Program-made: the position numbers and the translations under genes
Assembly: GCA_964514585.1 (NCBI GenBank)
Contig: CAZETU010000009.1
Location: forward strand, 1 to 11,957
Source of the DNA: Candidatus Woesearchaeota archaeon
GTDB taxonomy: Archaea > Nanobdellota > Nanobdellia > Pacearchaeales > GW2011-AR1
Direction of reading: 5' to 3'
Length of the DNA stretch: 11,957 nt
The notes under the pieces: generated by a model
What the model was told of the DNA's origin: nothing
What the model saw: only the letters and a program-made list of their open reading frames with translations
The model's database searches: none
Shown: positions 152 to 6,997 of the stretch, one piece after another
How the letters are laid out: each line of letters begins with the position of its first letter
Position numbering within the stretch: the stretch's first letter is position 1

Positions 152-185
152 GCAACGCCCCAACTGATAGTAGTGGGGGAGTTTT
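152..185. repeat. 34-bp 13-8-13 palindromic site A (putative recombination site)
   Basis: GCAACGCCCCAAC-TGATAGTA-GTGGGGGAGTTTT; one of four direct-repeat copies. Confidence 0.85.
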
Positions 186-213
186 GCTATGACAATGTTT
201 ACAAAAAAATACT

Positions 214-1488
214 TTAGCAGCTATAGCTTTTTGCTACATTATCTCCATCTTCATCACAAATGAATACCTTTGTATATTTATCTGCAAAATATGGATTATC
301 TCCCTGATATTCAAAAACAACTAAAAAGGAAATAAATTCTTCATCATCTGAACAAATACCTATGTATTGATTAGCTGTTTGATATTTAGCGATATAGTTT
401 TTTAAATCATTTTTATTTTCAAAAGTTTTATATTCTTCAATCTTAAATATAAAATCTCCATTGCTACTCATAACTTCTGCTGCCGCAGTATCTTCAACTT
501 GTGATCTGCATTTTTCAAGGGGATTATCTTTTGATATTACTTGATCTGATAGTTGTATCTCTGGTATTTTTTCTGTTTCTTGAGCACTTTTATCTTTCTC
601 AAATAACGCAATAACGCAATAATCTAAATTGCACCCTATAGCCCCATAATTATAATCCTCATCAATTACTAAATTCCTAGAAGAAAATCGCTTATCAAAT
701 TCTTCTCTGAACTTTTCAATTCCGCCTCCTCGAATAGCATAGGATTTTACAAAGAAAGTTTTATATTCTGGTAATTTCATAATACTTTTGGTATAATCAA
801 TCATCTGGACAGGCCTCGGATATTTATCTGGGTCCTTTCTGATTTCATTAGATAAGCTAATTAAAGCTCCATTTAGTTCTTCAGAGATATCAATCGGATC
901 CACACCGTTACTCATACGATAATCATTTAGATAATTCATTGCTGATAAAGAAAGATTATCTATTTTTGAACCCTCGATTACTACAGTTGGATTCTCTGGG
1001 GGATTAATAATTTTAGAAATTTTATCCCAATTGTAATAAATCGTTGTAGCTATTACTATTAATAAAATCACAATAATAATCTTTTTCCAAGGAATTACTA
1101 ATTCTTTTTTCCTCTTCTTAACTTTTCCCAAGGTAAGAGATATTATTTCATCGTCGTTATTATCTTGTATTTTCTTTTTCTGTCTTTTCTTAGGCTTATT
1201 AAAATTGATAAAATCCTTGGCAGTTGAATATAATTTTTCTCCTGAATAAGTTGATTTCTTTTTCTTTCTTTTAAATGAGCTGGGGTTTCCAATTGGTTTA
1301 ACCCACGCCTTTCTTCCATTCAAACCTGGACAATTATGTGATTCTGGCAATATATGTTCGTCACAATGTTTTTCATGACAAAATTTGCAATAATGGGGCA
1401 TTCCCGTTATTTGTTTATTACATACTGGACATCTATCCAAGGGATCTTTATTATTAGACTTCTTACTTTTTCTTGAAGTTTTTGTCAT
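214..1488 (-). CDS. Membrane protein: N-terminal AN1-type Zn finger, single TM helix, CAP/SCP-like extracellular domain
   Basis: CPVC-x10-CKFCHEKHCDEH-x5-HNC fits the AN1 finger pattern. Hydrophobic stretch IIIVILLIVIATTIYY. YLNDYRMSNGVDPI...EEL and YNYGAIGC resemble the CAP fold. A TATA box lies at 1508-1515. Confidence 0.75.
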   Translation of the reverse strand: MTKTSRKSKKSNNKDPLDRCPVCNKQITGMPHYCKFCHEKHCDEHILPESHNCPGLNGRKAWVKPIGNPSSFKRKKKKSTYSGEKLYSTAKDFINFNKPKKRQKKKIQDNNDDEIISLTLGKVKKRKKELVIPWKKIIIVILLIVIATTIYYNWDKISKIINPPENPTVVIEGSKIDNLSLSAMNYLNDYRMSNGVDPIDISEELNGALISLSNEIRKDPDKYPRPVQMIDYTKSIMKLPEYKTFFVKSYAIRGGGIEKFREEFDKRFSSRNLVIDEDYNYGAIGCNLDYCVIALFEKDKSAQETEKIPEIQLSDQVISKDNPLEKCRSQVEDTAAAEVMSSNGDFIFKIEEYKTFENKNDLKNYIAKYQTANQYIGICSDDEEFISFLVVFEYQGDNPYFADKYTKVFICDEDGDNVAKSYSC

Positions 1489-1526
1489 ATAAATCTACTC
1501 ATAAATATATATAAAAATGTTTAGAA

Positions 1527-1958
1527 TTAGGCTTTTTTTAATTTCTTCTTACTTTTTCTGAATTTTTTTAAAGCTAACGTTCTGACATCCTCAACTTCTT
1601 CAGAATTTATTTCATCTCCAAAATTTCTTGATTTCCATAAATCTTCCCTTGCCTGGACATCTACTTTCTGAAATTCTTCGCTATGGTTTGCTTCGATTAA
1701 GTGTGTGGTTTCATGAACTGCAGTGCCATCAATTTCATCATAATTCATAGACCTTAATCTATAGTTAGAAATACATATGGTCCTTGTTTCAACATGTATG
1801 TGTGCAACTTCAAAGTTTTGAGAATCAGGACAATAACCTTCCCAAAATTTAATTTTGGGGACAGATACCCCTAGATTCTTTGATGTTCTTAATACTGCGT
1901 CCTTAAATCTGCATTGTTTTTCATAAAGCAGAGCCTTCTCAAAATTCCTATTATCCAT
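1527..1958 (-). CDS. Small HEXXH zinc metallopeptidase-like protein (YgjP/DUF45-, WLM- or SprT-like)
   Basis: VHETTHLIEANHSEEF resembles the HELxHL..xNHS..F motif of YgjP-like proteins; 143 aa. Confidence 0.7.
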   Translation of the reverse strand: MDNRNFEKALLYEKQCRFKDAVLRTSKNLGVSVPKIKFWEGYCPDSQNFEVAHIHVETRTICISNYRLRSMNYDEIDGTAVHETTHLIEANHSEEFQKVDVQAREDLWKSRNFGDEINSEEVEDVRTLALKKFRKSKKKLKKA

Positions 1959-2065
1959 TTTAAATACAAAGCTTAGGCCATAACCTAATCGACTTACTAC
2001 ATTGTTCGCATAGCCCTTTTATCATGCTAAGAAGATTGAATCAAATAATATAAACATTCGCTTTA

Positions 2066-2099
2066 ATAATTCTCTAACCGATAGTAGTGAGGGAGTTTT
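2066..2099. repeat. 34-bp 13-8-13 palindromic site B
   Basis: ATAATTCTCTAAC-CGATAGTA-GTGAGGGAGTTTT; the left arm is divergent but still matches the reverse complement of the right arm at 9/13. Confidence 0.8.
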
Positions 2100-2185
2100 G
2101 ATTAAGAACTATTATTCTTTATGCAAAAACATCAAAACTGGCATTAATGTTTTATCTTTGATAATTTGTTTAATAGCTTCGACCA
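2076..2185. repeat. 110-bp direct repeat, copy 1 (copy 2 at 5096-5204)
   Basis: Manual alignment gives 10 substitutions and 1 indel over 110 columns (~90%). It covers the spacer and right arm of site B plus an ~85-bp coding-like tail. Confidence 0.95.
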
Positions 2186-2186
2186 C
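2112..2186 (-). pseudogene. C-terminal remnant of unknown gene X (VVEAIKQIIKDKTLMPVLMFLHKE*)
   Basis: Same peptide as at 5122-5204, with 7 of 8 coding substitutions synonymous. This copy has no start of its own and a 1-bp indel near the stop. Confidence 0.6.
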
Positions 2187-5360: not shown

Positions 5361-5380
5361 CATGTAAACTATTTAATGAG

Positions 5381-6181
5381 ATGGGATTTGGGAAAAATAA
5401 CGAAGATTGGTTAGAAGATAAAAATTGGTTCAGAAAACATTGGGTAATAAGTATTTTTTTGGGATTGTTCGTGATAGGAATTATTGGGAATATTATTGGT
5501 ACAGAGGATCCTAGTATAACGGGAAATGAGGTGCAAGGGGAATATATAGAAAAAGTTGCTAAGTCTACATCTAATATAGAAGATTCTGAAATAGTAGAAA
5601 AAGAATCCGAAGATGGAACCTATGGAATCAATGAGAATATCAAAGTGGATTATTTAACTTATAAAATTACAAAGGTAGAAACTTTTACAGAGATGGGAAC
5701 TTCATTTATGAATAAGGAAACTTCTGGGAAATTCATTAAAGTTTATTTAGGAATAATGAACGATGCAAAAGAAACAAAAGATATTTTTTCTCCAAGATTT
5801 AAAATAAAGGATAATCAAGACCGAGAGTACGAAAGATTGTCTGATGACATGATATATATTTCCGATTACCTAGAATTTGGCAAACAATTACAGCCAGGAT
5901 TAGCAGCCTCAGGAGCTATTGTATTTGAGTTACCTAAAGATTCTAAGGACTTAAAATTAGTTATTTCTGGAGATTGGCTTTCAATTGCGGAAGTAAATGT
6001 TATATTAGCCGACATAGATGATATTGGAAAAGATACAACGCAACAAGAGGAACAAGATGAAATGATGGAAGATATAATGAATCAGTGTGATGCTCCCTTT
6101 AGTTGCTCTTCTTCTTGTTCTGAATATATGGACATGGGACAAAAAGATTGCCCATCGGGACAAGTTTGTTGTATGGAATAA
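5381..6181 (+). CDS. Membrane-anchored DUF4352 domain protein with Cys-rich C-terminal tail
   Basis: N-terminal TM helix (WVISIFLGLFVIGIIGNII). GKFIKVYLGIMND...FKIKDNQDREYE...LQPGLAASGAIVFELPKD is DUF4352-like. The tail has 6 Cys. Confidence 0.85.
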   Translation: MGFGKNNEDWLEDKNWFRKHWVISIFLGLFVIGIIGNIIGTEDPSITGNEVQGEYIEKVAKSTSNIEDSEIVEKESEDGTYGINENIKVDYLTYKITKVETFTEMGTSFMNKETSGKFIKVYLGIMNDAKETKDIFSPRFKIKDNQDREYERLSDDMIYISDYLEFGKQLQPGLAASGAIVFELPKDSKDLKLVISGDWLSIAEVNVILADIDDIGKDTTQQEEQDEMMEDIMNQCDAPFSCSSSCSEYMDMGQKDCPSGQVCCME

Positions 6182-6182
6182 A

Positions 6183-6617
6183 ATGGAAAGTCAAAAAATT
6201 TACATGAAAAAATTGATTGTTGTATTGTGTTGTTTATTCTTGATTTCTTTCGCAAGTCCGGGCCCCATTCCGTTTGGTGTAGGGTATAATGCAACAGAGA
6301 CTACCCGCGCACCACTAGATCATCCAGCAGAAGTTGGAGATGTCTCAGAAATTGGTGGCGCATCCCCTGAGGATAATAGTAATGCTGTAGTTGAAAATTC
6401 CAATAGATGTAGTGATTGTTGTAGTAATGATGATTTATTTTTAAAATTAACCAAAAGGGTCTCTCTTCTCGAGAAAGAAATTTCTAAATTGAGGTTAGAA
6501 CTAGAGAAGAATAAGGTATATGGCGATGAATTAGATACTGAACCTGAGTCTCAGATAGAAGTAAAGGAAGAACGAAAAGGGATTACTGGATTCTTTGCTA
6601 AGATATTTGGCAAATAG
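6183..6617 (+). CDS. Secreted/exported protein with signal peptide, coiled coil and amphipathic C-terminus
   Basis: The ATG at 6183 directly follows the upstream stop (alternative start 6204, MKKLIVVLCCLFLISFAS). The track start at 6087 overlaps the previous gene. The protein ends RKGITGFFAKIFGK. Confidence 0.75.
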   Translation: MESQKIYMKKLIVVLCCLFLISFASPGPIPFGVGYNATETTRAPLDHPAEVGDVSEIGGASPEDNSNAVVENSNRCSDCCSNDDLFLKLTKRVSLLEKEISKLRLELEKNKVYGDELDTEPESQIEVKEERKGITGFFAKIFGK

Positions 6618-6691
6618 GTAGTTATTTTTTTCTTTAATCCCAATCTTTAAATTTCCCATCAACAGCAACGATAAAACACAAAATCACAATA

Positions 6692-6709
6692 CTTAAAACG
6701 TCCACCCAT
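6692..6709 (+). repeat. Internal copy of the terminal inverted-repeat motif
   Basis: CTTAAAACGTCCACCCAT matches the reverse complement of 11865-11882 (CTTAAAACGCCCACTCAT) at 16/18. Confidence 0.6.
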
Positions 6710-6726
6710 GAATATCACAAAAGTCC

Positions 6727-6741
6727 TGGACGCCCCAACCG
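6727..6741. repeat. Half-site E: left arm plus start of spacer only
   Basis: ACGCCCCAACCG (6730-6741) is identical to 3803-3814 of site C; the right arm is absent. Confidence 0.6.
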
Positions 6742-6997
6742 GAAAAGTTTACATAATGGTATAATCGAGGAATGTTAATTTGTGTGAGCTTGTTTCTTTT
6801 TTTCTTTATTTTTCTCTATATATATAATAATGCATTGCTGCCTTCTGTCTATAATTAGACCAGAAGGATTATTGTATTATTAGTGTTCTTACCTACATCC
6901 CTTCATCTCTCCCATATATACAGAGCAGCCATTCGAGTGGCAATTTTAGCGTTTTATCGTCGGTAGAACCGGCTTGACACCCGAAAAAAGCGAGTGG

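Follow-up and report, generated by a model that had tools for sequence, protein, structure and literature searches.

What is the role of four copies of a 34-bp sequence, all in one orientation, that lie between the accessory genes of a small archaeal mobile element? The question is raised by an 11,957-bp stretch of DNA (31.5% GC), referred to here as the window, which is the entire contig C9 (CAZETU010000009.1) of a Candidatus Woesearchaeota archaeon; the host genome comprises 18 contigs and 1.04 Mb, is 89.7% complete, and has a GC content of ~37–38% outside C9. An earlier note on the window had read the repeats as the boundaries of a gene-cassette array served by a tyrosine recombinase other than the integron integrase IntI. 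We find that the 34-bp sequences may well be the core sites at which a site-specific recombinase, probably of the tyrosine type, acts, and on comparison of sequences we put the probability of this at roughly 0.5. The four sites, with the scores they obtain from a weight matrix (PWM), are as follows.

152–185, plus strand: site A, with a class-I left arm, the 8-nt center TGATAGTA and the conserved right arm (49.7 bits)
2066–2099, plus strand: site B, with the conserved core and a weak left arm (45.7 bits)
3800–3833, plus strand: site C, the best palindrome of the four, with 11 of 13 arm positions complementary (59.1 bits)
5086–5119, plus strand: site D, with the conserved core and a second type of left arm that is also found in metagenome sites (49.5 bits)

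The four sites have in common a 24-nt core, consisting of AAC, the 8-nt center CGATAGTA and GTGRGGGAGTTT, which begins at 162, 2076, 3810 and 5096 on the plus strand, and a search for this pattern in 200 shuffles returned 0 matches. The co-oriented repeats described in the earlier note are thus where it had placed them, and three of the block sizes that it gave are recovered as core start-to-start spacings of 1914, 1734 and 1286 bp. Its statement that no site interrupts a gene also holds, in that none falls inside an open reading frame (ORF) of at least 40 aa and all four are intergenic. Scanning the 1.04-Mb genome with the PWM (43.5 bits), which was derived from 29 distinct sites, gave 7 sites scoring at least 37.9 bits and none between 16 and 37.9 bits; the remaining three are on contig 3 (C3), at 83286, 94229 and 103033, and are likewise co-oriented. 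A match at C3:78392 was discarded because it falls within a 1123-aa ORF and does not pass the PWM. Beyond this genome the distribution is patchy and tied to mobile elements, with sites in 12 of 49 genomes of the genus and 15 of 401 of the order, mostly as one or two copies. A species-genome scan yielded one true match outside the genome, and a scan of IMG/VR yielded look-alikes in coding sequence only.

Alignment of the 29 sites indicates that AAC, the 8-nt center, a GTG and GGGAGTTT are conserved, that only 24–34 nt are kept, and that the outer left arm is variable and falls into a few types. The center reads (C/T/A)GATAGTA in nearly all of them. This is the pattern that had been noticed in the window, of a conserved right arm and a left arm that keeps AAC and then varies. 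The symmetry of two 13-nt arms around an 8-nt center, which had been ascribed to every full site, is good in A and C, but the left arms of B and D are weak. Nor is the repeat confined to 34 bp in each case, since B and D share ~125 bp as listed below; site D in addition has 16–17 nt of its left flank in common with L034:870.

2076–2200, matching 5096–5220, plus strand: B/D repeat, 125 bp with 89–95% identity, spanning the site core and the 3′ end of a small minus-strand ORF

Every contig that carries two or more sites carries them in a single orientation (4 of 4 in C9, 3 of 3 in C3, and 2 of 2 in each of L030, L033, L034 and L035), an arrangement that would arise at random with a chance of 1 in 512. 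Uniform direct orientation speaks for recombination sites, whose main rival is a transcription signal, in which each copy would be a terminator hairpin before the next gene's promoter, reused between genes, with modules shuffled by ordinary or microhomology recombination. Four of the sites (A, C, L099 and L039) do fold into hairpins followed by three to five Ts, the DNA hairpins of A and C having free energies of −7.5 and −7.7 kcal/mol (z of −3.2 for C), and many sites lie between convergent genes. Sites B and D, however, do no better in this respect than shuffled sequences (−0.1 and −2.5 kcal/mol), and yet keep all 24 core positions, so that the stable stem-loop and T-run of an intrinsic terminator are not found in every copy. 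In addition, the loop is the best conserved part of the site, whereas the arms lack compensatory changes: arm positions are complementary in 76% of cases across sites, as against at most 55% in slid controls, with the outer left arm poorly conserved, and covariation between the arms does not exceed that in shuffles in either pairing register. The T-run is often absent on the strand of the upstream gene, and the orientation of the site is independent of that of the genes at C3:94229, at C3:103033 and in the D block. Rfam 15 gave no match at the sites, either at the gathering threshold or at E ≤1, and a scan with a terminator consensus did not list them. Because B and D have a perfect core without a hairpin, and because covariation is lacking, a double-stranded site bound by a protein fits better than an RNA or DNA hairpin, and we regard the transcription signal as unlikely. 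At L036:1213–1254 (minus strand) 10 nt of the left flank repeat part of the center and right arm perfectly in inverted form, which creates a longer alternative palindrome.

Evidence for recombination at the sites comes from comparison of loci. The metagenome contig L030 contains two sites 1265 bp apart around a 1243-bp block with two minus-strand genes, encoding a 97-aa ORF and a 308-aa SDH/ClpP-like protease. A related metagenome contig, L037, is 98–99% identical to L030 on both sides of this block and has a single site at the same place, composed of the left flank of the first L030 site joined to the core and right flank of the second. Contigs from different samples carry either the empty form of this locus (7 contigs) or the filled form (3 contigs). 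Because four core positions distinguish the two L030 sites, the switch from one to the other must lie within a 5-nt run of identity, cAACC; runs of identity of 7 and 9 nt further to the right were available and were not used. A second breakpoint is provided by the B/D repeat, in which the 125-bp homology stops on the left exactly at AAC. A third is provided by a 44-nt left flank that is common to a left-arm-only copy in the window, described below, and to a full site in L040 (genome G394), and that ends at AACCG. Three independent breakpoints thus coincide within 5 nt, at AAC^C (the caret marking the breakpoint), and they are not in the longest runs of identity, which argues against shuffling of transcription signals by homology. 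An 8.8-kb island on contig 3 that is enclosed by two direct sites, described below, is further evidence for recombination. Separately, comparison of L042 (G343:C3) with G000 C5:67422–70713 reveals a variable spot between the same two conserved genes, occupied by a 273-aa gene and a site in one genome and by three unrelated genes and no site in the other.

From the repeats, their orientation, the presence/absence case and the coincident breakpoints we infer both a point of exchange and an enzymatic mechanism. Every site is made up of a variable arm with CCC(C)AAC at its end, an asymmetric 8-nt center that is conserved, and the conserved arm GTGRGGGAGTTT. In the mechanism that we propose, strands would be exchanged where the variable arm meets the center, at AAC^C. 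A module would then run from the center and conserved arm of one site, through a few accessory genes, to the variable arm of the site that follows. Resident sites would gain or lose such modules, which would accumulate head to tail and in direct orientation. The four-block array of the window is the cargo of an 11.85-kb element that was itself put into a tRNA-Glu gene by a different, tRNA-targeting integrase.

Uniform orientation would also be explained if the sites were single-stranded hairpins recognized by an IS200/IS605-type (Y1 HUH) transposase, as in REP or PATE sequences. The sites are indeed imperfect palindromes that occupy one strand per contig, and the left-end hairpin of two genomic IS200-like copies has a 10-nt word in common with the site center and right arm. 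These two IS200/IS605-like copies (G000 C5:30963–31631 and C5:59408–60076) are 669 bp long and 99.7% identical, and each has an in-frame TGA in its transposase frame. We nevertheless consider recognition by a Y1 transposase very improbable, given that the genome has only 7 copies of the site, that B and D do not fold, that the crossover would fall within the site, next to the loop, and not at a guide-specified point outside a hairpin, and that Y1 transposases do not co-occur with the sites, being present in 3 of 12 site-positive and 8 of 37 site-negative genomes of the genus. With 7 copies in this genome and one or two in relatives, the sites are also not REP-like, a possibility that the earlier note had named.

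The copy used for the third breakpoint had been described in the earlier note as a half-site at 6727–6741. The left arm followed by AACCG is present there, and the center and right arm are absent; the left arm is, however, part of a longer unit that recurs elsewhere in the genome.

6693–6741, plus strand: left-arm-only unit ("half-site"), consisting of a 20-nt word, a spacing of 22–23 nt and a class-I left arm up to AACCG

The 57-nt unit of 20-nt word and left arm occurs three times in the genome (in the window, at C1:202836 and at C3:19088 on the minus strand) and once together with a full site in G394. The commonest left arm is found without center and right arm at at least 12 further genomic places, and those on C3 between 88 and 126 kb (C3:88317–125703) are all on the plus strand. 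Likeness to the full site always stops after AACCG in these copies, and the sequences joined to them on the right can be grouped into families. Hairpin variants that combine the same stem with longer loops are present at C3:21835, 94912 and 95816. Exchange with secondary sites may have given rise to the left-arm-only copies, and this would lend weight to the case for recombination.

How the sites are placed relative to genes can be seen in the blocks that they bound in the window.

186–2065, minus strand: block A–B, with a 424-aa zf-AN1 protein (214–1488) and a 143-aa WLM/YgjP-like metallopeptidase (1527–1958)
2100–3799, minus strand: block B–C, with a 59-aa integrase N-terminal fragment (2170–2349) and ORFs of 253, 67 and 114 aa
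3834–5085, minus strand: block C–D, with a 250-aa ORF, a DUF2085 membrane protein and a 48-aa ORF
5120–6692, plus strand: block from D to the half-site, with a DUF4352 protein (5381–6181) and a 144-aa ORF (ATG at 6183, end at 6617)

Each block contains 2–4 ORFs. The earlier note had counted whole genes in every block, which is too generous at two places: ORF 2170–2349 is an integrase fragment, and the D block, whose two intact genes are on the plus strand, starts with the remnant of a small minus-strand ORF (5120–5290). The 424-aa protein is an orphan with an N-terminal AN1 zinc finger, and a search for its homologs returned a match to the zinc-finger domain only; its pairing with a WLM/YgjP-like metallopeptidase recalls, by analogy, DNA–protein crosslink proteases. 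A layout of ORF followed by site, as in a cassette, is seen at 19 of the 29 sites, but the blocks hold 2–4 ORFs, in one block the genes are on the opposite strand, and at some sites an ORF of this kind is lacking. Site A lies 29 nt past the stop codon of the 214–1488 gene and site C 27 nt past that of the 3860–4612 gene, and several sites contain a TAA stop codon. The genes that end at sites are mostly small and of no known family, SHOCT and ASCH domains being among the few matches, and a few are ordinary genes (encoding a HAD hydrolase, Ham1 and a flavodoxin). A position just past a stop codon fits both a cassette-like unit, made of genes and a 3′ site, and a terminator. A comparison of the sequences downstream of the sites found no shared leader or promoter, which speaks against terminators that precede a promoter. 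The modules appear to be multi-gene.

The spacing between sites and genes is also relevant to the suggestion that a dimeric DNA-binding regulator of the element uses each site as an operator, placed ahead of each operon. Although the sites are palindrome-like and lie 33–118 nt upstream of the next minus-strand gene, an archaeal operator would be expected at a shorter and more constant distance. Nor does an operator account for strict co-orientation or for the conservation of one arm alone, and it leaves the site-bounded presence/absence case and the coincident breakpoints unexplained. We consider it the least probable of the explanations weighed here.

Several observations weigh against core sites of a recombinase. 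At 19 of the 29 sites an opposite-strand gene runs into the conserved arm, its stop codon lying −3 to +29 nt away and sometimes within the site, and the sites end in a T-run in the fashion of a terminator. The left-arm word also exists alone, and might therefore be a separate functional element. The presence/absence case is the single clean one, and short-repeat recombination could in principle yield such a case. The window array has the same order, with 99.4–100% identity, in the 18 stretches that we fetched, from several samples, out of 21 contigs carrying each of two proteins used in exact-protein look-ups for array variants, and none of the 18 has a rearranged or empty array. A similar constancy is seen on contig 3, where an 8.8-kb island of low GC content lies between the direct sites at 94229 and 103033, beside dnaK–dnaJ, and contains ParE-, HEPN/NTase-, NYN- and RelA/SpoT-type genes, one integrase and one integrase fragment. 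Its gene order is the same in the 10 contigs listed of 19 that carry the dnaJ neighbor, no empty form is present among those 10, and a conserved chromosomal site after dnaJ was not found in relatives (27 genomes of the genus). As neither the window array nor the contig-3 island varies among the contigs read, nothing points to ongoing movement in this population. The window array looks old and partly decayed, with its integrase fragment and pseudogene remnant, and fixed in the sampled population. Finally, no recombinase co-occurs convincingly with the sites. The proposal of recombination sites in the earlier note thus gains from a block that is present or absent, from coincident breakpoints and from direct orientation, and gains nothing from the window array; a variable block, such as it suggested looking for in relatives, exists at L030/L037, while the window blocks keep their order in all 18 stretches.

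Which recombinase might act on the sites is best considered together with the setting of the array, for which the following features are needed.

45–56, plus strand: attL core, a 12-bp copy of the 3′ end of tRNA-Glu
8786–9721 and 9718–10401, minus strand: AbiEii toxin and its upstream 227-aa partner, in the element backbone outside the array
10640–11830, minus strand: Xer-like tyrosine integrase of 396 aa with a C-terminal zinc ribbon (PF00589, 9e-27)
11892–11903, within tRNA-Glu: attR core, a direct repeat with 45–56
11892–11957, minus strand: tRNA-Glu(UUC) (Rfam RF00005, 48 bits; anticodon read from the sequence), with its 5′ end cut by the contig end

Judged by its sequence, the region 57–11891 is an integrated element of 11.85 kb in tRNA-Glu, because it is bounded by the 12-bp att repeats, because bases 1–44 are the original downstream flank of the tRNA (they are homologous to the tRNA-Glu trailer in the relative G158), and because an integrase adjoins the tRNA. 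In a 52.7-kb metagenome contig (L079:7959–12432) a second integrated element, headed by a different integrase of ~390 aa, lies directly beyond base 1 and runs on into contig C7, and the elements are therefore stacked in tandem at one tRNA. Inverted repeats of 23–29 nt are present just inside both element ends (window 1–83 and 11865–11957). The AbiEii nucleotidyltransferase and the overlapping 227-aa partner are probably an AbiE-type toxin–antitoxin pair that stabilizes the element. Upstream of tRNA-Glu in L046 (G158:C17, 1058–1410) there are two more tRNA-Glu-like copies, with long inserts and without the 3′ acceptor end, which are probably relics of repeated integration at tRNA-Glu.

The closest solved relatives of the window integrase are archaeal XerA proteins (4a8e and 5hxy; XerA match 3.5e-14), and its match to IntI4 (2a3v) extends over 59 residues alone (E of 1e-4). 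It is the enzyme that inserted the whole element, its own att site being the 12-bp tRNA end and not the 34-bp site. Two fetched relatives are at tRNA genes too, one at tRNA-Thr (G286) and one with a short match to the window's tRNA end (G002). The suggestion that this integrase acts on the 34-bp sites gained no support: we found no link between them, and sites are present in only 3 of 7 other genus genomes with a full-length relative. In keeping with the earlier note, there is no IntI in the 89.7%-complete genome, where the best TIGR02249 score, obtained by a XerA-like gene on C1, is 104 bits against a cut-off of 265.

The sole protein family that recurs near the sites is a second integrase family (~390 aa, with the N-terminus MxKIDPYKHEERW), four full copies of which are in the genome (C1:129610–130707, C2:201472–202578, C3:98707–99831 and C3:124461–125564). 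This second family is widespread in archaea; many of its members are missed by Pfam PF00589, and no solved relative is detectable by sequence. Its recurrence raises the possibility that the 34-bp sequences are attL/attR scars of elements that carried such an integrase, inserted serially at the same site and then lost it, comparable to CIME remnants of ICEs. Consistent with this, block B–C ends in ORF 2170–2349, which is the first 59 residues of the family (up to 95% identity to full-length members), a full copy and a second fragment lie between two contig-3 sites, and a site is within 10 kb of a second-family gene in 5 of the 12 site-positive genus genomes (G000, G018, G158, G219 and G288). 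The 59-aa fragment, however, was joined to the B/D repeat by illegitimate deletion and not at the site. Intact members, moreover, lie beside tRNA genes that are likely to be their att sites (tRNA-Asp in L045, tRNA-Glu in L046 and L079), and at nine metagenome loci of three members the flanking sequence fetched, up to 10 kb to either side, contains no site. The family is present in 31 of 49 genomes and the sites in 12 (10 of 12 site-positive and 21 of 37 site-negative genomes have it). Taking these observations together, we think scars of this kind distinctly improbable. G000 contig C16 (3.5 kb) carries tandem tyrosine recombinase genes of 348, 339 and 431 aa, like bacterial recombinase-in-trio elements.

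If the sites are recombinase core sites, as we favor, candidate enzymes are the one host XerA-like protein (C1:106546–107346) or an element-borne integrase acting in trans. Action in trans by the host XerA-like enzyme would explain the lack of a linked enzyme. Archaeal XerA is a single enzyme that acts on a dif site with a 6-nt spacer; we identified no chromosomal master site (dif or attB) for the 34-bp sequences, which are at several unrelated loci.

A broader proposal follows, which we put forward tentatively and rate at somewhat short of an even chance, namely that DPANN (Woesearchaeota) archaea and their mobile elements have a cassette platform of their own. It would use neither IntI nor attC: ~34-bp lox/dif-like sites would delimit multi-gene accessory modules, and a Xer-like recombinase supplied in trans would exchange these at AAC^C, making the platform an archaeal counterpart of integrons and of pdif modules. 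On this view the many left-arm-only copies would stem from recombination with secondary sites. Little is understood of how DPANN archaea, which are host-dependent and have tiny genomes, acquire and trade accessory genes. Were the sites true crossover points, they would be a simple, searchable signature of module exchange in DPANN, distinct from integrons including those of archaea with IntI and attC, and would offer a compact pair of site and recombinase. Were they transcription signals instead, they would still mark module boundaries, of an ordinary, phage-like "regulatory cassette" kind.

Comparison with known systems places the array between several of them. Integron attC sites are long imperfect palindromes with paired R″/L″ and L′/R′ boxes, and undergo recombination at the outer R′ box while folded from a single strand. 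The array resembles integrons in its directly oriented sites, in genes that usually read into the site, often with the stop codon inside it, and in a conserved triplet that is GTT when read on the strand of the genes, like that of the R′ box. It differs in having no IntI, no attI/Pc platform beside an integrase and multi-gene blocks, and in a 34-bp site of which 24–34 nt are conserved, of which B and D are unfolded, and whose breakpoints are beside the central 8 nt and not at the outer R′ box. The analogy to integron crossover drawn in the earlier note from the invariant AAC does not fit the position at which we place the crossover, beside a central spacer, as in lox/dif, and not at the outer end of a folded attC. 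Arrays without a neighboring integrase are common among integrons (CALINs), and archaeal integrons have been reported, but these rely on IntI together with attC sites of the classical type (Ghaly et al. 2022, PMC9668308).

Simple tyrosine-recombinase sites of the lox/FRT type have inverted recombinase-binding arms on either side of an asymmetric overlap of 6–8 bp that does not differ between partner sites. With Cre/loxP and Flp/FRT the sites appear to share two inverted arms, an asymmetric 8-nt center that gives direction, and direct repeats that allow excision and integration of circles; in contrast to those systems, only some copies have two good 13-nt arms, the left arms differ, and no dedicated recombinase lies beside the sites. 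Recombinase-less elements such as Xer-exploiting integrative elements (IMEX) and cis-mobilizable remnants (CIME) stack in tandem at one site, with every junction a hybrid. The window itself is within a tandem array at tRNA-Glu, which is a likeness to these elements, whereas the sites are at several unrelated loci without an identified chromosomal master site. In T4-type phages, promoter–stem-loop (PeSL) cassettes are said to be transcription signals recombined by homology; these too are repeated intergenic hairpin signals bounding small accessory modules that differ between relatives, but here two of the four window copies are unable to fold and the breakpoints coincide at one position. REP and BIME sequences, which reach tens to hundreds of extragenic copies per genome and are accompanied by a RAYT-type Y1 transposase, differ from the sites, which number 7 in the genome and do not co-occur with Y1 genes.

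The closest analogue is found in the pdif modules of Acinetobacter plasmids, which are bounded by XerC/XerD sites (PMC13141974, PMC6449649). The pdif sites are 28 bp long (11-6-11), and the modules are flanked by inverted sites, with C and D modules alternating (PMC13141974). As in the window, short core sites bound small accessory modules that often carry toxin–antitoxin or unknown genes; one arm is conserved and the other variable, and the crossover is within the site next to the spacer. The pdif modules have no recombinase of their own, and by analogy the recombinase would act in trans here. The differences are an 8-nt center between AAC and GTG, a length of ~34 bp, direct orientation throughout (six contigs) and an archaeal host. 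Because the crossover would lie beside a central spacer, as in lox/dif, pdif modules are a nearer analogue than integrons, and the description of the array as integron-like is partly right.

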